Made by a program: the position numbers and the translations under genes. A model generated the notes under the pieces. It saw only the letters and a program-made list of their open reading frames with translations, was not told the DNA's origin and did not search any database. A DNA stretch of 38,358 nt from a virus (Duplodnaviria; Heunggongvirae; Uroviricota; Caudoviricetes). The stretch lies in the IMG/VR virus record IMGVR_UViG_3300045988_093140; one strand, written 5' to 3'. Positions 15,345 through 36,136 of the stretch are shown piece after piece (position 1 is the first letter of the stretch; each line of letters opens with the position of its first letter).

Positions 15345-15864
15345 TCAGCAACCCCGGTATCAGTTCATCCAGCGCGGCTGCTTTGTTCATGGCTTTGATG
15401 ATATCCCGTTTCAGGAAATCAATATGCCGGTTATCCAGCTCAGGAAAACGTCGCTGCACCGACAGAGGAATACCGTCGAGAATACTGGATATTTCCCTTG
15501 CTATACGCGACAGCACGAAAGTACAGAATGCGGTTTCCACCACTTCAGCCGATTCTTTGGCATTTTTCAGTTCCTGCGCCGTCGCCTGAGCACGAGTCAG
15601 GCGATGGCGCTCAAATTCAAGTGTTCCTGGGTGAAGATCTGCCTCGCTGGCCAGCCGCAGTTCTTCAACCTCCCGGCGCAGCTTTTCGTTCTCAATTTCA
15701 GCATCCCTTTCGGCATACCATTTTATGACGGCGGCAGAGTCATAAAGCACCTCATTACCCTTGCCACCGCCTCGCAGAACGGGCATTCCCTGCTCTTGCC
15801 AGTTCTGAATGGTACGGATACTCGCACCGAAAATATCAGCCAGCTGCTTTTTGTTGACTTCCAT
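15319..15864 (-). CDS. Nu1: Terminase small subunit Nu1
   Basis: 181 aa (lambda Nu1 length), MEVNKKQLADIFGASIRTIQNWQEQGMPVLRGGGKGNEVLYDSAAVIKWY... Confidence 0.95.
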
Positions 15865-16000
15865 TGTTCATTCCACGGACAAAAACAGAGAAAGGAAACG
15901 ACAGAGGCCAAAAAGCCCGTTTTCAGCATCTGTCGTTTCCTTTCTTTTCAGGGGGTGTTTTAAATAAAAACATGAAGTTACGGCGAAGAAGAACGGAAAC

Positions 16001-16080
16001 GCCTTAAACCGGAAAATTTTCATAAATAGCGAAAACCCGCGCGCCTTCCGCCCCGTAGCCTGCCGGATCGCCGGAAAGGA
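16001..16080. other. cos site region (cosN with flanking cosB/cosQ-like sequence); nick-site bases differ from lambda
   Basis: About 190 bp upstream of Nu1; 16001-16041 equals the reverse complement of the lambda left end, 16061-16085 resembles the lambda right end, but 16042-16060 reads CGCCTTCCGCCCCGTAGCC rather than the lambda cohesive-end sequence. Confidence 0.6.
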
Positions 16081-16135
16081 CCCGCAGGCGTTCTAGTTTA
16101 TTCGCAATGAATTCAATGTCTGACAGACCTGCGTC

Positions 16136-16153
16136 GTGCGACCACGGTCGCAC
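16136..16153. repeat. sopC-like 18-bp palindrome GTGCGACCACGGTCGCAC, copy 1
   Basis: Exact inverted repeat; core GACCACGGTC shared with the F-plasmid SopB binding site as I recall it. Confidence 0.6.
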
Positions 16154-16167
16154 AGCAATGAATCAAC

Positions 16168-16236
16168 ATCCTGCATGCTCGCGCAGAGGAGTTCCCCGTC
16201 GGACTACGGTCATGGTTAATGCGGGAATACAGCGAC
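16168..16236. repeat. 68-bp direct repeat, left copy, flanking the AT-rich cassette
   Basis: ctcgcgcagaggagttccccgtcggactacggtcatggttaatgcgggaatacagcgacgatacagcgc; second copy at 17963-18032 with 5 mismatches. Confidence 0.9.
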
Positions 16237-16362
16237 GATACAGCGCATGATGTGTCAGGCTTGAATACCTTTATCCGTTAAAAGGGATATCAGTTAAGTT
16301 ATCCCGTGCAGGGTATAAGCCATTATCAAAGCCACTCAGTAGCGAATGGCTTTTGTAATGGA

Positions 16363-16812
16363 CTATTTAATTAGTGATGCTGCGTATTCGATTAGATATA
16401 ACTTAGGTGCCAGCCAAATTTTTAACCATGTCATATTGGCTACTACAGAAATAATAAAACTGAACCATAGAATAAAAACTGCTACTAATGGTAAGACAAA
16501 ACCACTTAACCTACCGTCACTTTCCCAAATCATAGTCGGTTTGTATTTAGGCTGTCCATTATCGCATGAGCGTCCTTCATTATCGAACTTACCAATTTCA
16601 ACTTTTTTGCACTGTTTCTTCATAAACCAAATAACCAGCGGAATTGTTGAAATGGCTATTAATGTTTTAATCAGGCTATCAACCATATTCCATACCAGCA
16701 ACTGATGAACAACATCCGGAATTTGAGCCTGACTGAATACAATGGCGGAATCAATTCCATCGCTGGCCTTCTTCAATAAATCAACAAGAATTTTATTTGC
16801 TTCTTCTTGCAT
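16363..16812 (-). CDS. Hypothetical small membrane protein, two predicted TM helices, in AT-rich cassette
   Basis: 149 aa ORF with ATG at 16812 and AGGA 8 nt upstream; hydrophobic stretches LIKTLIAISTIPLVIWFM and GFVLPLVAVFILWFSFIISVVA; low GC. Confidence 0.7.
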   Translation of the reverse strand: MQEEANKILVDLLKKASDGIDSAIVFSQAQIPDVVHQLLVWNMVDSLIKTLIAISTIPLVIWFMKKQCKKVEIGKFDNEGRSCDNGQPKYKPTMIWESDGRLSGFVLPLVAVFILWFSFIISVVANMTWLKIWLAPKLYLIEYAASLIK

Positions 16813-16937
16813 GTTTATATCCTGTAAGTTGTAAGTCTGTTCGAAAAAAAAACAAACAACTACGAGAGACAGAAAAAATATCTCAGGCTCTCTTTCTATA
16901 AGCTTTTAGTTGAGGATGTTCTGCAAAACAAAACTGG

Positions 16938-17798
16938 TTAGTTATGTAACTGCTTCCGGAATACAACAGCCGACGTGCTACAACGTAAAATTCGCTTGAT
17001 TGTGGCAGTTGAGGAAACAGACTTGCATTTCTCAACATCATCAATAATGACCACATCCGGTACAGGAATGACGCGGGTATGCAATGTTTTTGCACTAATA
17101 ACATCACAGCCATTCAGTGGTCGAATATCTGCATCTTCAGGCACTACCAGAAGCACACGTTTTTCCGGTGCAGAAAAGCCAGCAGCAAGAGTGCGTGACA
17201 ATAAAGTCATTCCGCTGCGTGGCTTCATACAAATTTCAGAAATATGATTCTTTTCGTCCAAATGATGCTGGACATCATTTTTATCATCATTCAACAACTC
17301 TGCTGTTAATACAATCCCTGCTGTCTCAGATTTCCAGGAAATGCTGATATCCTGATCATCTGCATCAACATCATATTTCATCGAGTAAGGACTAAAGCTA
17401 CGTCCAACGAACGCATCATTTACCAGTACACGCCCACCCTGTCTGACCTGAAAGTCAACGCGCCCTGAAAGCTGATTTGCTGTTACAAGCAATGCCTTTT
17501 TTCTTTTTGTTTTATTGCTCATTGCCACCAACTGTTCAGCCATCTCTCTTGTCACACTACCAGAAACTCTTTCTTGAATTTTCACAGAAAATTTTCTGGA
17601 TGTAGTAGCATCGACATTAAAAAATCTGGATGTCATCAGGCAGTTATTAACAATTGGCATCAGCTCACTTACGATTGTAAAAAATTCCCGGTAAAGCTCA
17701 TTTTGCTTTTCAACACACAGCTTTCCACAATCGTCCAGCTTACGCTCAAGAGCACTTAACCTTTCCATTATTGAATTAATTTTTTGCAACTCTTTCAT
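16938..17798 (-). CDS. Hypothetical cytoplasmic protein, 287 aa, N-terminal coiled coil, in AT-rich cassette
   Basis: ATG at 17798 preceded by AGGAGG (MKELQKINSIMERLSALERKLDD...); the track ORF extends further upstream only because there is no in-frame stop; no family recognised. Confidence 0.7.
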   Translation of the reverse strand: MKELQKINSIMERLSALERKLDDCGKLCVEKQNELYREFFTIVSELMPIVNNCLMTSRFFNVDATTSRKFSVKIQERVSGSVTREMAEQLVAMSNKTKRKKALLVTANQLSGRVDFQVRQGGRVLVNDAFVGRSFSPYSMKYDVDADDQDISISWKSETAGIVLTAELLNDDKNDVQHHLDEKNHISEICMKPRSGMTLLSRTLAAGFSAPEKRVLLVVPEDADIRPLNGCDVISAKTLHTRVIPVPDVVIIDDVEKCKSVSSTATIKRILRCSTSAVVFRKQLHN

Positions 17799-17821
17799 CA
17801 AAACCTCCTGACAAAGATACC

Positions 17822-17839
17822 GTGCGACCACGGTCGCAC
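17822..17839. repeat. sopC-like 18-bp palindrome, copy 2 (extends to 20 bp, 17821-17840), 22 bp upstream of the cassette start codon
   Basis: cGTGCGACCACGGTCGCACg. Confidence 0.6.
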
Positions 17840-17962
17840 GCTCCTGAATACATGCCCTGTTTCTTCCACCCTCGCACAGGACTGGCGAACATGAGGGACA
17901 AACCCGCGAATCAATAGCGCGGTAAAAACCCGGTGTGCATCGTTTTTGATTATTCCCGCACA

Positions 17963-18032
17963 CTCGCGCAGAAGGAGTTCCCCGTCGGGCTACGGTCATA
18001 GTTAATGCGGGAATACGGCGACGATGCAGCGC
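17963..18032. repeat. 68-bp direct repeat, right copy
   Basis: ctcgcgcagaaggagttccccgtcgggctacggtcatagttaatgcgggaatacggcgacgatgcagcgc. Confidence 0.9.
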
Positions 18033-18042
18033 GGAATTTAGC

Positions 18043-18060
18043 GTGCGACCACGGTCGCAC
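18043..18060. repeat. sopC-like 18-bp palindrome, copy 3
   Basis: GTGCGACCACGGTCGCAC. Confidence 0.6.
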
Positions 18061-18079
18061 ACGAGAAACAAAGAGATTT

Positions 18080-18391
18080 TTATGCTACAGAGGAACAAGC
18101 TGGCGGGTAATTCAGCGTAGTGAATACCGGCATCTCCATCTTGTATGCGTAATGATACTCAGCAGTTGCTCCAGCAGACGCTTTCCAGCCAGGAAGCATC
18201 AAAATAGCATCAGCAGAACGAAGCATTGCAAAGCAAATATCCATGTATTCACGTTGCGTCAGGCCATTGGGTAAAGTGGCTGGATTCAGGACCGAATGAC
18301 CATGACGTGACAAACGCTCAGCCTCTTTATTAAAGGCGTCACGATTAAAATTCTCATATCCCGTCATTGGTCCGGCAATATAAATTTTCAT
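18080..18391 (-). CDS. Small conserved prophage protein, DUF4406 / nucleoside 2-deoxyribosyltransferase-like fold (recalled)
   Basis: 103 aa, MKIYIAGPMTGYENFNRDAF...; ATG confirmed at 18391. Confidence 0.6.
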   Translation of the reverse strand: MKIYIAGPMTGYENFNRDAFNKEAERLSRHGHSVLNPATLPNGLTQREYMDICFAMLRSADAILMLPGWKASAGATAEYHYAYKMEMPVFTTLNYPPACSSVA

Positions 18392-18432
18392 TTACTATCC
18401 AACAAATTAAGTTAGTTTTTGATGCAGATGGA

Positions 18433-18894
18433 TTAATTCAGGCATTGCGTCCTGATGTACTCCTGCAAATATCCAACCTGTTTCGTCACTGTGACGATTC
18501 GCTCTCTGAGGATGAAATAATCCCGTTCAGCGGAGTCAGTAAGTCGGGGGCCGGTAGCATCGCCCAGGCCGCCGGTGATGGTCGTTCCGTTCGCGGGACA
18601 TCTGGCGTTGAGGTGCAGCCCACACTTGCCAGTGCGAACACAACGCTGCAAATCATCAAGCTGCTTTTTGGCATCAGCTAAGTCCTTCGTGTATTTGGCA
18701 TCCAGAGCCGCTACATCACGCTGGCGGATCTGCATGTCTTTGATGGTAGCGTTCGCCAGCTTCAACTCTCTGGCGTTTTTGTCGCGCTGCTCTTTATAGG
18801 AGATGGCGTTATCACGGTAATGATTAACAGCCAACGACAGGCAGACGATGATGCAGATAACCAGTGTGGAGATAATCGCGGTGACTCTGCTCAT
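18433..18894 (-). CDS. Rz: Spanin, inner-membrane subunit Rz
   Basis: From [49 protein letters not shown]... recognised as lambda Rz; N-terminal TM plus coiled coil. Confidence 0.9.
18486..18674 (-). CDS. Rz1: Spanin, outer-membrane lipoprotein subunit Rz1, embedded in the +1 frame of Rz (start codon uncertain)
   Basis: Lipobox ALASVGC followed by Pro-rich ...[24 protein letters not shown], resembling lambda Rz1; fully nested in Rz. Confidence 0.7.
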
Positions 18895-19391
18895 TACTGC
18901 CCCCACAAACAGACTTCACGCTCAATCTCACGGCGAGTCATCAGCCCTTTCCATTGCTTACCGCCAGCATATGTCCAGCGACGTAGTTGATCACATGCAC
19001 CTTTGATATCGCCCTGGTTGATTTTGCGAAGAAGCGTCGATGTTCTGAAATTGCCTGCACCCACGTTGTAAACGAACGAGTAAAGAGCACCACGCGTTGT
19101 TTCCGGTATATCGACTTTGATGTACGGGTTAATTTGTCTGGCGACAGTAGCAAGGTCTTTATTCAGGAGAGCTTTGCATTCAGCTTCGGTATACGTTTTA
19201 CCGAGCATAATGTCTTTTCCTGTATGCCCGTAACATACAGTCCATACACCAACGATGTCTTTGTAGGGGTTATGTTTCACACCTTCCAGACCATCGTTGC
19301 CGCTCGGACCAGAGATGAGCACAGATGCTATGGCAATAGCCCCGCCACCAATAGCAGTTGCGACAGCTTTGCGTAATGATGACTGCATCAT
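18894..19391 (-). CDS. R: SAR endolysin (lysozyme), phage 21 R-type
   Basis: 165 aa; N-terminal weakly hydrophobic Gly/Ala-rich signal-anchor-release segment [20 protein letters not shown] followed by lysozyme-like domain. Confidence 0.9.
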
Positions 19392-19660
19392 ATTTCCTTC
19401 GGTGCTCTCTTTCCCAATTCACCAATAACCATCGCCGTGGCGGAAATATTATTGGCATCAGTTTTATCCAATATGTCCTGCAATATCTTCGTGCGCTTCA
19501 TCTGCTCGCGTTTATTGAGCCGGTATGTAAGTACACCGAGGATAATGCTGAACGCGACACCGATAATGAAGCCCCAATCCTGCAATGACAGGCTGGCAAA
19601 GAACGCAGTAAGACCAGCACTACCATAAGGTGCGCTGCTGTATCGTTCATCCATCTTCAT
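19388..19660 (-). CDS. S: Holin (pinholin-like) with dual-start motif M-K-M
   Basis: 90 aa, two hydrophobic segments, charged C-terminus, overlaps the R start by 4 nt; ATG at 19660 and second ATG two codons in. Confidence 0.8.
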
Positions 19661-19756: not shown

Positions 19757-20833
19757 TTACTCAAATAACTTTTTCACTTCATCAACTGTCTGAAGATAAC
19801 GTTCACCCTCAATCTCAATACCGATTGCCTGACGACCTAACTTCAGCGCGGCTTTAATAGTAGAGCCTGATCCCATAAAGAAATCGGCAACGATATCTCC
19901 GGGGCGTGAACTACTTTTTATAATATGTTCCATCATCGCTGCAGGTTTTTCACATGGGTGCTTGCCAGGATAATATTGCACAGGAGGAAACTCCCATACA
20001 TCGGTATAAGGTACATCAGCAGTAACATGAAATGGGCGGCGCAAATTTTCATACTGAGCCTTCAAATCATCATACTGCTTCTTTACTTCCTCATAATGCA
20101 ATTTCAGATCGCTATAACGCTTTTCATGTTCTGAATAATCAACATTAAAAGGATATGGACACGGGACACCGAGTGAATCTGCCTTCCTGCGAAATAATTC
20201 GCATAGTTTATTAAAATCAATTAATGATGGAAGCCGCCACTGCGAATAAGAAAACCAGTGCGAACACATCTGCTTTCCTGTCGCTGAATTAATGTCTGCG
20301 GCTGATATATCTAACTGACGGCGAGCCAGCGAAAAAGCATCAATTAGTGGAGAAAAAATATTTTTTCTTAAATCTGCACATTTTGAAGCATAACCTGACT
20401 GACCTTTAGCATAACCTGACGCGCCGTAATGCTCTGCAAATAATATTCTTTCAGTAGCAGGAAAATAAGCCCTTAAACTTTCTTTATGACAACCGCGCCA
20501 CATACCACTGGGTTTAGCCCAAATGATATGGTTCAGAACATTGAAACGGTCGCGAGTTAATAATTCAATTTTTGACGCAAGGCGAGAGCCGGTAAACATA
20601 TACAGGCTGCCATTAGGGGCCAATATCCGCCAAAATTCTGCCAAAAATTCGTCAATCCACCCCAAAAAGTCAGCATCGCTATCCCACTGGTTATCCCATG
20701 CGTTAGCCTTTACGCCGAAGTATGGTGGGTCTGTTGCAATCAAATTGACCGAGTTATCAGGGATGGTTTTGATAAATTGCAGAGAATCTGCGCAAACGAG
20801 TTGTGCGCCATGAATATTAGTGGTTTTGAACAT
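19757..20833 (-). CDS. DNA methyltransferase, DPPY motif (N6-adenine or N4-cytosine class), orphan
   Basis: Start at ATG 20833 (MFKTTNIHGAQLVCADSLQFIKTIPDNSVNLIATDPPYF...); C-terminal AdoMet motif FFMGSGST; no adjacent restriction gene. Confidence 0.85.
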   Translation of the reverse strand: MFKTTNIHGAQLVCADSLQFIKTIPDNSVNLIATDPPYFGVKANAWDNQWDSDADFLGWIDEFLAEFWRILAPNGSLYMFTGSRLASKIELLTRDRFNVLNHIIWAKPSGMWRGCHKESLRAYFPATERILFAEHYGASGYAKGQSGYASKCADLRKNIFSPLIDAFSLARRQLDISAADINSATGKQMCSHWFSYSQWRLPSLIDFNKLCELFRRKADSLGVPCPYPFNVDYSEHEKRYSDLKLHYEEVKKQYDDLKAQYENLRRPFHVTADVPYTDVWEFPPVQYYPGKHPCEKPAAMMEHIIKSSSRPGDIVADFFMGSGSTIKAALKLGRQAIGIEIEGERYLQTVDEVKKLFE

Positions 20834-20968
20834 AGCTATTATTTTTTTGCCTGGGTAAGCTAACCCGGCGATGCGCATCGCGGGTGGGCTTTAGGTTCAG
20901 CCTATAGCTCTGGCATGGGTTGACCGCAGGACAAGCTGCAACTTGTCCTGCGCCCACTTTTCAGGCAC

Positions 20969-21728: not shown

Positions 21729-22040
21729 ATGTTTAACGTGATAACCCACCCTGCAGCACTGGATGAACTGCTTGAACTACCAGATGATTTGCGAGGTCGC
21801 ATGACCAGATTAATTGAGCGACTGGAGAAAGAAGGCAACAAACTGAAGATGCCTCATAGCCGTGTAATAGGTGGAGGGCTTTTTGAACTACGAGTAGGGG
21901 ATAAAAACATCGCAAGAACGCTGTACGCCTACGCGACTGGTAACGAAATTTATCTATTGCATGCATTTGTAAAAAAGACACAGAAAACACCGGTGAAGGC
22001 TATCGAAATCGCCAGAACTCGCCTGAAGGAGATGAACTGA
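21729..22040 (+). CDS. Type II toxin, RelE/ParE superfamily (HigB-like / Gp49-like), toxin-first operon
   Basis: 103 aa; 4-nt ATGA overlap with the downstream HTH gene; upstream palindrome TCACTTTTTAGTGA. Confidence 0.7.
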   Translation: MFNVITHPAALDELLELPDDLRGRMTRLIERLEKEGNKLKMPHSRVIGGGLFELRVGDKNIARTLYAYATGNEIYLLHAFVKKTQKTPVKAIEIARTRLKEMN

Positions 22041-22327
22041 TGAAAGCGAAAGGCATCCCGTTTAACGAAGTAAAAGAAAAACTCCTCAACACTCCAGAAG
22101 CCGTCAAAGGATATGAAGAGGCCGACAAAGAGCTGGAGATGGTCGAAATGTTATACGAAATGAGGGAAAGAGCAGGTTTAACGAAATCAGCTCTGGCTGA
22201 ACGAATGGGGTTGCGCCCGTCAGCCATCAGCCGCCTGGAAAGCAATCCTTTAGGGGCAAGTATGAAAACTTTGGCTAAATATGCTCATGCCTGCGGCGCA
22301 ACCATCGATATTCGCGCTGTTTATTAA
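22040..22327 (+). CDS. HTH XRE-family antitoxin (HigA-like)
   Basis: 95 aa with HTH segment LTKSALAERMGLRPSAISRLE. Confidence 0.7.
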   Translation: MKAKGIPFNEVKEKLLNTPEAVKGYEEADKELEMVEMLYEMRERAGLTKSALAERMGLRPSAISRLESNPLGASMKTLAKYAHACGATIDIRAVY

Positions 22328-33119: not shown

Positions 33120-33476
33120 ATGAAAGTAATTAGCATAAAAATCATTTTGATTTTATCAATTATTGCTCTTGCTATTGTATTTTTCTGGCCTGAATCTAAT
33201 AAAGGCCCAGAGTGCTATAAGGTTAGTGATGAACAGGCAAGAGAATTTGTAAAAAATGACTTTTTGAAAAAAATAACGCGTTGGAATAACGATGTACAAC
33301 TTCTCGGTACAGAAGCCCCAAAAATTACGTGGGAAAAGATTGAAAGAAGCTTAACAGATGTTAAAGATGAAAAAACGCTTCTCGTCCCATTTAAAGCCGA
33401 AGGCCCGGAAGGTAAGAGAATGTATTATGGAATGTACCATTGCAAGGAAGGTTATGTTGAATATGCAAATGATTGA
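33120..33476 (+). CDS. cmi: Colicin M immunity protein
   Basis: 118 aa, N-terminal TM anchor, recognised as Cmi from the translation; convergent with cma. Confidence 0.85.
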   Translation: MKVISIKIILILSIIALAIVFFWPESNKGPECYKVSDEQAREFVKNDFLKKITRWNNDVQLLGTEAPKITWEKIERSLTDVKDEKTLLVPFKAEGPEGKRMYYGMYHCKEGYVEYAND

Positions 33477-33498
33477 TACATCGGTATAAAGACTGCAT

Positions 33499-33526
33499 AA
33501 AAAAGGCCGGAATCCCGGCCTTTTTA
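33499..33526. terminator. Bidirectional rho-independent terminator between convergent cmi and cma
   Basis: AAAAAA-GGCCGG-aatc-CCGGCC-TTTTT. Confidence 0.65.
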
Positions 33527-34342
33527 TTATCGCTTGCCACTTTCTTTAATGTGAATTTCGCCAGGAAGTAGTATCTGATACTCTTTACCAGAGAACATCG
33601 CCCCGAGCCTTGTAAGAGACTCTCCGATTACGCCACGATGAGTGCTGGCATTGAAGTCATACTTGTCGTTATACGAGCGAACAACGCCATTATAGGTCCA
33701 TGAGCCATTAGCGGAGACAGTTAAAGTACCTTCTGTTTTCAGCGTGATATTACCAAGATATGCGCCGGTAATAACATTATAATCGCCAGTGGCGTGTGTG
33801 AATTTTGTAGAAATAGGGAATGTGCCTACTACACCAGATTTTACAATATCTCTTATCTGATTAATTTTCATCGGAGAAATTTTGAGACCAATATTTGCGA
33901 TATTAACGCTTCGGTCTGCACCATTACCCCATAAATAGTGTGCAAGCGCCACAATTGGTGTTGTGACATTACCGCTCATTTGTTTCATATTCATTGAGCG
34001 ATAGTCATATTTATTTGGCGCAGGTTTAGCTAAGTGGTAGGCGTCATAAACACTTATTCCGCGGTGAAGGATAAGGTTTCTGTCAGCGTTACAGAAGTAG
34101 GCAATATTTGTTGACATAATTTGTAATGTCAGGGGATCGCTGGCACCGTGTTTTTTGATGTAGTCCTCAAGCTGAGTTAGAGCCTGAATACACATGTTTG
34201 GGCTCTGGAAAAAGCTGTAAACCACCTGGACTAAAAGGGGGCCAGAACCAGGCACGTGTGGTGCTGAGAGAGAAAATGCGCCATTACCATAACTCGGTAA
34301 GTTAGTTGATGGTGATGGAGCTGTCACAACGATAGTATCCAT
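33527..34342 (-). CDS. cma: Colicin M (lipid II-cleaving bacteriocin)
   Basis: 271 aa; recognised as colicin M along the whole length, including N-terminal TonB-box-like DTIVV and the C-terminal region with HATGDYNVITGAY. Confidence 0.85.
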   Translation of the reverse strand: MDTIVVTAPSPSTNLPSYGNGAFSLSAPHVPGSGPLLVQVVYSFFQSPNMCIQALTQLEDYIKKHGASDPLTLQIMSTNIAYFCNADRNLILHRGISVYDAYHLAKPAPNKYDYRSMNMKQMSGNVTTPIVALAHYLWGNGADRSVNIANIGLKISPMKINQIRDIVKSGVVGTFPISTKFTHATGDYNVITGAYLGNITLKTEGTLTVSANGSWTYNGVVRSYNDKYDFNASTHRGVIGESLTRLGAMFSGKEYQILLPGEIHIKESGKR

Positions 34343-34419: not shown

Positions 34420-34554
34420 CAAAATCAGGATAGCCCGAGCCGCCCCATTAGTAAAGTAAAGTGTAAATAACATTTATATTTTAATGTAATAAAAATGCTA
34501 CGTTTTGTTGTATATTATTCTAATGGTAGTTCAGGCGGGGCCGACTTCGGTCGG

Positions 34555-34606
34555 GCCGGTTTCTCCGTTTACCGGTATTGCGAACCCTGCCTGGGCTATC
34601 ACCATA
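34555..34606 (+). repeat. c4-like repeat, copy 1, upstream of icd/ant (candidate antisense-RNA or target element)
   Basis: gccggtttctccgtttaccggtattgcgaaccctgcctgggctatcaccata, preceded by hairpin CCGAC-TTCG-GTCGG. Confidence 0.35.
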
Positions 34607-34867
34607 ATATCGTTTATCTTCTAATCATTTGTTTAAGCAAACTATAAAAACACCTATCCCCGTGACTGGTCACAGGGTAAAATGTCTTTGCAAATTATTG
34701 ACGTGTGCGTCGTTTTGACGGTAAAGTTATTCCGCTGCGGTAAATCCCGTAGCCGGGCGTAGGAACCCGAGTAAATGAAGCGCACAACACGCGCCAGCGT
34801 GTTTTTTTGTGTGTAAAATCTGCGTACACCAAATTTATGGTGGCTCAGATGGGGCAGCTTTTAGCTG

Positions 34868-34920
34868 GCCGGTTTCTTCGTTTACCGGTATTCCTACCCC
34901 CGTCTGGGCTACCGCCATAT
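34868..34920 (+). repeat. c4-like repeat, copy 2
   Basis: gccggtttcttcgtttaccggtattcctacccccgtctgggctaccgccatat; 5' 25 nt identical to copy 1 except one base. Confidence 0.35.
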
Positions 34921-34971
34921 AGAGCGTAGGAACTCTGGTGGTAGCACGACCAATTAAACGGAGTGCATACC

Positions 34972-35136
34972 ATGTTCAAATTCAAATTTGCGGCAGTCGT
35001 TCGCACAGACAAAAAGTCCCACATTCATCATCTTTCCACCATCGCGTCATCTGAACGGGAAGCTCGTCGCCAGTTCGCCAGCCGGTTTGTCCTGGTATTG
35101 TCTGCCCGTATTCCGGTGCGCGAGGTGGCAGTATGA
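34972..35136 (+). CDS. Icd-like small protein (host cell-division inhibitor family); not in the ORF track
   Basis: 54 codons, GGAG RBS; MFKFKFAAVVRTDKKSHIHHLSTIASSEREARRQFASRFVLVLSARIPVREVAV; stop overlaps the next start (ATGA). Confidence 0.55.
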   Translation: MFKFKFAAVVRTDKKSHIHHLSTIASSEREARRQFASRFVLVLSARIPVREVAV

Positions 35137-35363
35137 ATCAGGTAAAAATGAACACTGTTGGCCTGCTGGAATCGTTGGATGAACGTCTGGCTCAGGTCTA
35201 TGCGCTCGTATCATCAGCCCATCGGACAGTATCCAGCTGTGAGGCGTCGATTTATCTATCAGAAGCCGGGAAGCTTCTTCAAATCGCGTGTGAGTTAACT
35301 CATGAAGCACAGGGGTATTCCGCGTCGCTCTCGTCGCAATTGCTGGGTAAGGAGGCTGAATGA
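35133..35363 (+). CDS. Hypothetical small protein in the icd/ant operon
   Basis: 76 aa, start and stop overlap neighbours. Confidence 0.5.
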   Translation: MNQVKMNTVGLLESLDERLAQVYALVSSAHRTVSSCEASIYLSEAGKLLQIACELTHEAQGYSASLSSQLLGKEAE

Positions 35364-36136
35364 GCGCGTTAGCAGTCTTTTCCTTTCAGGAAGAGCATCA
35401 GGTTCGTGTAGTGATGATTAACGGCGAACCGTGGTTTGTTGCATCTGATGTGTGTATGGCGGCGGGTATTGATTCTACGGCCACCAGAAAGTTGGATGAG
35501 GACGAAAAGGGTCTGCATTTAATGCAGACCCCTGGTGGATACCAGAATGTTTCAATCATCAACGAGTCAGGTCTATACACCCTGATCCTCCGCTGCCGTG
35601 ACGCTGTTAAACCGGGCACGATTGCATGGCGGTTTCGTAAATGGGTAACGAACGAGGTCCTGCCCTCTATTCGCAAGAATGGAGAGTACGTTTACGTCGA
35701 GCCTGAGCCAATGCGAGCAGCAGAGCCGTTGAACTGGAGGCAGAAGGAGTATCTGCGAGGGCTGATTAACGATATTGCACAAAGTTTTCAGTATCGAAAT
35801 GCCTGGATTAGCGGTGTATGGTTGGCTTTGCGTCGGGCGTGTCGTAATCCATCCCCGAACCCCATAACGGTTGATGATTTACCAGCAATTACGGCAGAAC
35901 TGCGCCGGATTTTAACGGCTGCTGAGTCGGCATTGGGGAACATGCGCACGTATGAACGAGAGTTGTTGCGTGATGTTGTTCGTGGGGGTAGGCGGAGTAT
36001 GTCGTGTGGTGATTTGCCCATCACCGATATTAACTCTGATCTGGAAAAGGCGTTACCCGCGCATTTTGAACTGGCAGTTCAAAAACTTGAGCAGTTATCC
36101 GCGCAGCTAAAGCCAGCAGAAATCACCAATAAATAG
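35360..36136 (+). CDS. Antirepressor, Bro-N/KilA-N domain
   Basis: 258 aa; N-terminal Bro-N-like FQEEHQVRVVMINGEPWFVASDVCMAAGI. Confidence 0.75.
   Translation: MSALAVFSFQEEHQVRVVMINGEPWFVASDVCMAAGIDSTATRKLDEDEKGLHLMQTPGGYQNVSIINESGLYTLILRCRDAVKPGTIAWRFRKWVTNEVLPSIRKNGEYVYVEPEPMRAAEPLNWRQKEYLRGLINDIAQSFQYRNAWISGVWLALRRACRNPSPNPITVDDLPAITAELRRILTAAESALGNMRTYERELLRDVVRGGRRSMSCGDLPITDINSDLEKALPAHFELAVQKLEQLSAQLKPAEITNK

Follow-up and report, generated by a model that had tools for sequence, protein, structure and literature searches.

Organization of the cassette between the lysis genes and cos

The stretch of DNA analyzed here (38,358 nucleotides (nt); IMG/VR record IMGVR_UViG_3300045988_093140, Caudoviricetes), referred to below as the window, represents most of an N15-like linear phage-plasmid of Escherichia. 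It encodes a protelomerase of 631 amino acids (aa) with four TelK domains, a RepA-like protein of 1331 aa, a Q antiterminator and two C4 antisense RNAs, and the order of the genes in its right arm parallels that of N15. The sop genes lie outside the window. The present study concerns two genes, designated A and B, which were found at positions 16,168 to 18,032 on an insert bracketed by direct repeats (Table 1). From 21 kb down to 13 kb, every gene is located on the minus strand, in the order adenine methylase, holin, endolysin, Rz, DUF4406, A, B, cos, Nu1 and large terminase. A and B are thus the final genes of the phage right arm and lie inside the late transcription unit.

The cassette formed by these two genes is dispensable accessory cargo in a variable right-end slot between the DUF4406 gene and cos. 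A sequence-only reading of the window had already described an insert of accessory genes, distinct in composition, that separates the lysis genes from cos, and the comparison of related phage-plasmids bore this out: intact, deleted and empty slots were found among relatives whose flanks are 95–98% identical. The complete cassette was present in 28 of the 5426 complete E. coli genomes, always on plasmids. The GC content between the repeats (16247-17860) is 39.3%, versus 49.9% for the whole window, with 35.8% for B, 40.7% for A and 54% for the terminase genes. The islet of lower GC content is therefore real but milder than the approximately 35% estimated by eye, and the cassette is not the lowest-GC region of the window, the telN region having 36%. 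The two co-oriented genes were also confirmed, the larger product being 286 aa plus a stop codon instead of 287 aa.

Based on the results described below, we suggest the following overall explanation, to which we assign a probability of about one half. The cassette is dispensable, its two genes act independently of each other and are expressed from the late operon, the bracketing repeats are derived from recombination, and the palindrome in front of A is a part of the centromere.

Table 1. Positions of the features in and around the cassette and of the related palindromes in the window (IR, inverted repeat)
Feature	Position	Strand	Remarks
Gene A	16938-17798	-	286 aa plus stop; soluble, three-part protein; phrog_2571
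Shine-Dalgarno sequence of A (AGGAGG)	17804-17809	-	5 nt upstream of the ATG at 17798
Spacer between A and B	16813-16937	-	125 nt, AT-rich (34% GC); AGGA ribosome-binding site for B
Gene B	16363-16812	-	149 aa; predicted inner-membrane protein; phrog_3054
Left direct repeat R	16169-16246		78 nt
Right direct repeat R	17954-18032		79 nt
Segment X	17853-17953		conserved lambdoid non-coding sequence
Segment Y	16247-16361		conserved lambdoid non-coding sequence downstream of B; hairpin directly after the B stop codon
N15-type IR nearest cos	16136-16153		exact GTGCGACCACGGTCGCAC; about 90 nt from cosN
N15-type IR upstream of A	17822-17839		18 bp; would form a weak terminator-like RNA hairpin
N15-type IR adjoining DUF4406	18043-18060		exact; backbone copy kept in empty-slot relatives
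N15-type IR	21078		upstream of the late methylase; matches N15 IR3, which precedes an annotated late promoter
N15-type IR	26129		just downstream of Q
N15-type IR	28572		one mismatch; inside the repA-like gene
Adenine methylase gene (late)	19757-20878	-	
Holin gene	19388-19660	-	sub-threshold match to the HP1 holin family (26.6 bits versus a cut-off of 28.8)
Rz gene	18433-18906	-	
DUF4406 protein gene	18080-18391	-	
Nu1 gene	start at 15864	-	
cosN (approximate)	16041-16052		lambda-like; the minus-strand sequence GGGCGGAAGGCG-CGCGGGTTTTCGCTATTTATGAAAATTTTCCGG matches the left end of lambda

Flanking repeats and centromere palindromes

The two copies of R share about 90% identity over their 78 and 79 nt and differ by one indel. 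The direct repeats of 68 bp recognized earlier do form a bracketing pair, the 68 bp being the best ungapped core of these longer copies. The layout of the window is R-Y-B-A-IR-X-R. In mEp460, an unrelated lambdoid phage, X-R-Y lies uninterrupted in the non-coding DNA that separates the lysis genes from cos. Y alone was found in the chromosomal prophages of 2515 of the 5426 complete E. coli genomes, where it occupies the non-coding gap between Rz and the gene for the small terminase subunit. The bracketing pair is thus a conserved backbone linker present in two copies. In four relatives (L002, L032, L033 and L034), X has been duplicated along with R. The repeated units are backbone copies of 78 to about 210 bp (X-R, with or without the IR), which are single in empty sites and in unrelated lambdoid phages. 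Hence, the repeats flanking the cassette are a duplicated conserved non-coding segment (X-R) of lambdoid phages, and not the insertion scars of a mobile element. Insertion of a transposon or by site-specific recombination was considered and rejected, as neither a short target duplication nor terminal inverted repeats were present, no recombinase gene or transposon feature was found in or beside the cassette, and the repeats are copies of the backbone.

A separate observation concerns the RNA of X-R-Y (16247-16361 and 17853-18032 of the window; L018:295-589), which is predicted to fold more stably than shuffled sequences, with z values of -3.4 and -2.9 on the two strands. No Rfam match was obtained for this segment within the window, and an Rfam search of 15800-18500 revealed no known RNA.

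Several states of the slot can be distinguished among the relatives. The empty slot of L001 reads cos-X-R-IR-DUF4406. The E. fergusonii relative L035 has the unduplicated layout cos-IR-X-R-Y-B-A-IR*-DUF4406, where IR* carries one mismatch. The duplicated layout of L033 is cos-IR-X-R-Y-B-A-IR-X-R-DUF4406, and those of L032 and L034 are the same without the left IR. In L002, L017 and phage YDC107_1, a deletion of 828 bp has removed B and the C-terminus of A, and larger deletions were found in L016 and L003. The junction of the 828-bp deletion shows a 7-nt microhomology, GCTGCGT (L002:2110-2150 versus window positions 16386 and 17213). This deletion, which leaves A with 198 aa, is recurrent, being present in at least four plasmids of different sources in addition to YDC107_1.

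Based on these layouts, we infer that the repeats originated by unequal recombination at the 18-bp centromere repeats, which appear to have served as recombination joints. The duplicated layout would result if a genome with the cassette, at its DUF4406-proximal IR, underwent an unequal exchange with a genome lacking it, at the cos-proximal IR of the latter. Subsequent recombination between the two X-R copies would then yield an empty site such as those seen in the relatives.

The palindrome preceding A, GTGCGACCACGGTCGCAC, conforms to the 18-bp N15-type IR (GTGCGACCNNGGTCGCAC, as in N15 IR1-IR4), and matches the core of N15 IR1/IR4 (PMC7205306, Table 4) at every position. Six palindromes of this centromere type were found in the window, versus none in 100 shuffled sequences. 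The sopC-like palindrome that the sequence-only reading had placed 22 bp before the start codon of A is accordingly an N15-type SopB site, located 23 nt from the ATG. The coupling of the cassette to the partition protein that had been proposed from it was not supported by the comparison. The same palindrome stays beside DUF4406 in the empty-slot relatives, and the corresponding slot of N15 contains IR4, a putative terminator according to its annotation, ahead of gene 59, which is unrelated. This distribution argues for a dispersed part of the centromere and against an operator of A. Judged by these site comparisons, the palindrome before A is one of the dispersed SopB-type centromere sites and is unlikely to be a dedicated operator. 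The sites are dispersed as in N15, and they differ from it in number: there are six in the 38 kb of the window alone versus four in the whole of N15, and three of the six lie around the cassette, within 1.9 kb of cos. The N15 Sop system is reportedly, going by the title of a published paper, one that facilitates late gene expression.

Families, expression and possible roles of A and B

Both proteins belong to PHROG families labelled as being of unknown function. A matched phrog_2571 (E 2.4e-163, profile positions 1-291 of 291) and B matched phrog_3054 (E 1.4e-56, profile positions 1-137 of 137). The earlier statement that no family could be recognized for either protein therefore holds for Pfam, NCBIfam and PADLOC, in which neither had a match, but not for PHROG. 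A profile search of PDB gave no significant match for A and none for B, and five diverse homologues of B likewise had no match in Pfam. Neither protein could be confidently related to a structural or housekeeping function. The dN/dS ratio between natural alleles was 0.04–0.58 for A and 0.04–0.73 for B; values below 1 indicate that both are real coding genes. A literature search revealed no paper mentioning phrog_2571 or phrog_3054, and the Nature 2026 paper that used the PhiR phage panel does not deal with the cassette. The cassette is a further case of cargo in the lysis-cos slot, drawn from two catalogued but uncharacterised PHROG families.

As far as the searched collections go, A is nearly confined to N15-like plasmids of Escherichia and Shigella. 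A word-indexed search of 5.8 billion proteins retrieved only Escherichia/Shigella relatives (15 clusters at 71% identity or more). An exhaustive HMMER search of 1.84 billion representatives with a profile of A gave 15 matches, which were mostly fragments together with a few stand-alone domain relatives, and a second profile that included these domain relatives gained only small Providencia proteins. In PLSDB, A was found on 24 plasmids, being intact on 19 and truncated on five; in addition, there were two phage records. All database homologues begin at the same MKELQ as A.

The AlphaFold2 model of A comprises a helical hairpin (residues 1-55), a beta-sandwich (residues ~100-170) and a small alpha/beta domain (residues ~185-282). 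No hydrophobic segments were detected in A by hydropathy. The predicted local distance difference test score (pLDDT) was 46 with an alignment of 8 sequences and 60 with 16 sequences. In the model, the beta-sandwich (residues 100-170) reached a pLDDT of about 83, and the five-stranded alpha/beta domain scored 65–77. At the N-terminus, where a coiled coil had been expected from the sequence, helices 2-23 and 29-55 are predicted, with moderate confidence, to pair as a helical hairpin.

Relatives of single parts of A occur as stand-alone proteins, which indicates that A is modular. The middle part (residues ~100-172) corresponds to proteins of 72–110 aa from lambdoid prophages of Providencia and E. 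coli. Their genes are always located between the Q antiterminator and holin genes (L023:6001-6596, L020:5826-6371, L026:6001-6219) and have no membrane partner gene alongside. In Providencia, the beta-domain gene is followed by a gene for a coiled-coil protein of 81 aa, which shares with the N-terminus of A the motif SxxERxxALExxL; this match is weak (E 0.002 in a single pairwise comparison). The E. coli protein P0144 has the beta domain first and the helical part second, the reverse of the order in A, and BLASTP of P0144 against the N-terminus of A was not significant. P0147 (111 aa) corresponds to the C-terminal domain of A alone. The Q-holin slot of lambdoid prophages appears to contain the coiled-coil and beta-sandwich modules of A either in separate genes or in permuted order, the coiled-coil part being suggested only by weak matches.

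Two enzymatic readings of A were considered and dropped. The C-terminal domain resembles P-loop proteins (P4, Wzc) around KPRSGMT...DVVIIDD, with PDB profile E values of 0.33–0.88, which are not significant. For a P-loop or degenerate ParA protein, the Walker A motif GxxxxGK[ST] has Met in place of Lys, and the resemblance was set aside because P0147 does not have the motif, with RDDDMW in its place. An SGNH esterase was likewise rejected, the catalytic blocks being missing on inspection.

B contains two hydrophobic segments, centred near residues 52-56 and 109-123, which agrees with the two transmembrane helices predicted earlier. Its family is large: the protein collection contains 490 homologue clusters, and members were found in 172 phage records. 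A homologue with 70% identity lies directly after N in the early-left operon of P22-like and lambdoid prophages of E. coli and Salmonella. At the Salmonella loci, it adjoins sieB, from which it is distinct. More distant members were found in the early regions of N4-like phages of Salmonella and Vibrio, of the rV5-like phage phi92 and of the Pseudomonas phage Bjorn. In a Vibrio myophage, the member is a lone reverse-oriented gene amid structural genes. In the phage records inspected, the homologues of B had no conserved neighbour and never an adjoining A-like gene.

In the alignment of the family, near-invariant N-terminal (FSQAQIPDVVHQLLVW) and C-terminal (WLKIWLAPKLYLIEYAASLIK) segments surround variable helices and a variable loop: the N-terminal 40 and C-terminal 20 residues are nearly invariant, and the inter-helix loop and the second helix are hypervariable. 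The two B alleles found on N15-like elements diverge only in residues 61-124 (window 16447-16646), with 85% nucleotide identity there and at least 97% on both sides. It was also observed that both cysteines of the loop are replaced in the other allele. The B family provides the more useful lead, given its occurrence in over 170 phage genomes from several host genera, its invariant termini and its hypervariable loop, and a function found for B would bear on many genes at once.

In the 300 nt preceding A, a sigma-70-like promoter was detected neither by a tool scan nor by a relaxed scan, and the only match for B, relaxed thresholds included, overlaps its start codon (16817-16790); weak or non-canonical promoters may escape such consensus scans. 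In the E. fergusonii relative, A starts merely 60 nt after DUF4406. Downstream of B, only weak hairpins without a proper U-tract were found on the coding strand. The lack of a recognizable promoter and the position in the late operon make Q-antiterminated read-through the most likely mode of expression, and we propose it with moderate confidence. Transcripts starting at the Q-dependent late promoter would then run on into A and B, and both proteins would be made after induction or late in infection but not while the prophage is quiescent. With no sigma-70-like promoter seen, there is no indication that the lysogen expresses them.

The allele identities of the two genes are uncoupled, with one plasmid showing 99.7% for A and 87.2% for B and another showing 91.3% for A and 98.7% for B, and the genes are set apart by the AT-rich spacer of 125 nt. 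It seems most likely, and we hold this with moderate confidence, that A and B are inherited jointly here as functionally independent accessory genes of the lytic cycle. As a guess of low confidence, B would act alone at the inner membrane during lytic growth, and its most likely role may be to block the entry of the DNA of superinfecting phages, since the variable loop suggests an arms race. The next most likely role, also guessed with low confidence, would be an action on a conserved envelope target, as suggested by the invariance of the termini across host genera. Small inner-membrane proteins of phages that act alone, as proposed here for B, are SieB of P22 and lambda, Imm of T4, SieA of P22 and gp15 of HK97. 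B resembles these proteins in that its homologue adjoins sieB in P22-like prophages and in its variable loop; it differs from them in that no homology was detectable with PF14163 (SieB) or other Pfam models. The SieB model had no match at E up to 1 with B or with five diverse homologues.

It should be noted that several points weigh against the explanation preferred here. B lies directly downstream of A in 19 of the 19 plasmids with an intact A, and there was no N15-like plasmid with B but without A. Consensus promoter scans are weak evidence, and morons such as bor of lambda are expressed from poor promoters. The order of the recombination events is reconstructed from only five or six extant layouts. 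The structure model of A has low to moderate confidence, with a mean pLDDT of 60. The role suggested for B is drawn only from its topology, genomic context and conservation pattern, and its termini, conserved across host genera, fit a conserved host target at least equally well.

Among the other explanations, the one that survives best, and is nevertheless unlikely, is that the cassette serves counter-defence or host takeover in lytic growth, with B, for example, neutralising a membrane-associated host function and A inhibiting a cytoplasmic defence. It would account for B being encoded in the early or takeover regions of a large number of phages, both virulent and temperate, for its termini being strongly conserved across host genera, for its weak match to phrog_1486 ("membrane protein, host takeover", E 0.004), and for the occurrence of A-type modules in accessory slots of late operons. 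No homology to a known anti-defence protein was found, however; the hypervariable loop of B fits an arms race between phages better than a conserved host target, and expression from the late operon would come too late against early-acting defences.

The sequence-only reading had likened the pairing of a cytoplasmic protein with a small membrane protein to the architecture of many abortive-infection and exclusion systems. Such a system of the RexAB type, in which a cytoplasmic sensor and a membrane effector protect the lysogen, we consider somewhat less probable again. The likeness to Rex is that a temperate phage encodes, in one orientation, first a soluble protein (about 280 aa) and then a membrane protein (about 145 aa); sizes and order recall RexA (279 aa) and RexB (144 aa). 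The adjacency of A and B in all 19 plasmids with an intact A, the low GC content with presence or absence among relatives, and the frequent natural truncations, which could mean a fitness cost, also point this way. On the other hand, neither Pfam nor PADLOC (PADLOC-DB 2.0, in which no family was matched at E up to 1 by A, B or the DUF4406 protein) gave a match, the models for RexA/RexB and SieB included, and B has two membrane helices, not four. The paired architecture is not sustained by the relatives either: B stands alone in more than 170 phage records, among them those of virulent phages, and in early lytic operons, unlike the Rex pair, and the relatives of the A domains have no membrane partner. 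Moreover, the alleles of A and B recombine independently, and the consensus scans found no promoter for lysogenic expression, whereas Rex is transcribed with the repressor in lysogens. The idea of a defence function is unsupported rather than disproved, and it finds no support in anything measurable here.

A third possibility, an improbable one, is that the cassette assists holin, endolysin and Rz by modulating lysis or the time at which it occurs. The cassette follows the lysis genes directly in the same transcription unit, relatives of the beta domain of A are encoded immediately upstream of holins, and B is a small membrane protein. Yet the homologues of B lie away from the lysis genes in every other phage inspected, and no holin or antiholin model in Pfam was matched by B. 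Furthermore, relatives that have lost the cassette keep intact lysis genes and persist as plasmids, YDC107_1 having also been deposited as a phage record.

Two proposals involve the partition system. In the first, for which the odds are lower still, A and B would be a new exclusion or addiction module within the SopB complex: the three centromere repeats around it would silence it for as long as the plasmid prophage is partitioned properly, and loss or titration of SopB, or lytic induction, would free a cytoplasmic sensor A that controls a membrane effector B. A weaker variant of this unlikely reading would make phrog_3054 a universal family of phage inner-membrane superinfection-exclusion proteins, shared by phages of Escherichia, Salmonella, Vibrio, Pseudomonas and Ralstonia, temperate ones as well as virulent. 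The second and least probable of all holds that SopB at the three flanking repeats gates A and B as an addiction device or sensor of partition status, or that A acts on the partition complex; it draws on the three perfect SopB-type sites that surround the cassette in a span of 1.9 kb, one of which is 23 nt from the start codon of A, on the reported role of the N15 Sop system in late gene expression, and on the weak profile match of the C-terminal domain of A to P-loop proteins (E 0.3–0.9), but the sites are backbone (one stays in the empty slot, and N15 IR4 precedes an unrelated gene), their number changes from 1 to 3 through recombination with no link to A, and the P-loop resemblance fails on the Met for the Walker A lysine, on the lack of the motif in P0147 and on the non-significant PDB matches.

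Related slots and other features of the window

Returning to the reading of the cassette as dispensable late-operon cargo, the closest known case is the slot of N15 that contains genes 57-59. Both elements have the order holin, lysozyme, Rz-like gene, DUF4406, cargo and cos, and each slot contains a SopB-binding IR with the same core, placed upstream of the gene that is last before cos. The cargo differs, consisting in N15 of a cytosine methyltransferase (gp58) and gp59, with IR4 between their genes, and here of A and B; when gp59 was compared with A and B by BLASTP, no relationship emerged. The centromere repeat around the slot also differs, with three copies here and the single IR4 in N15. 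Apart from this, it was observed that gp59 (L028:7697-8320), the last gene product before cos in N15, contains a domain of about 110 residues in common with the central tail fibre J (phrog_31 and phrog_2589, E 1e-9 to 1e-13).

The second comparison is with the lambda-type morons between Rz and cos, such as bor, and ybcV, KilA-N and Rha genes in other lambdoid phages. These occupy the same slot and share with the cassette an atypical composition (here 39.3% versus 49.9% GC) and presence or absence between relatives. Classical morons are bracketed by a promoter and a terminator of their own and are expressed in the prophage. For A and B, no promoter-like site of their own was found in the scans described above, and unlike bor, they are co-directional with late transcription. 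The cassette is one more example of how lambdoid and N15-like phages exchange cargo in the lysis-cos slot, and it illustrates an apparent route of exchange in a phage-plasmid, namely unequal recombination at non-coding linkers and dispersed centromere repeats.

Several other loci of the window deserve mention. Two C4 antisense RNAs flank an isrK-like small RNA (34519-34919 and 35360-36136) upstream of the gene for a Bro-N domain protein, and this region (34519-36136) resembles the anti-immunity (antirepressor) region of the N15 type. A Gp49 (DUF891, HigB-like) gene and a helix-turn-helix gene at 21729-22327 form a pair equivalent to N15 genes 49 and 48 and probably constitute a toxin-antitoxin module. 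Colicin M is encoded in full length at 33527-34342 on the minus strand (271 aa; PF14859, E 8e-145). It is adjoined at 33120-33476 by a gene for a divergent YebF-like protein of 118 aa, presumably with the fold expected of the Cmi immunity protein. Together, 33120-34342 looks like a pair of bacteriocin and immunity genes carried by an N15-like phage-plasmid.

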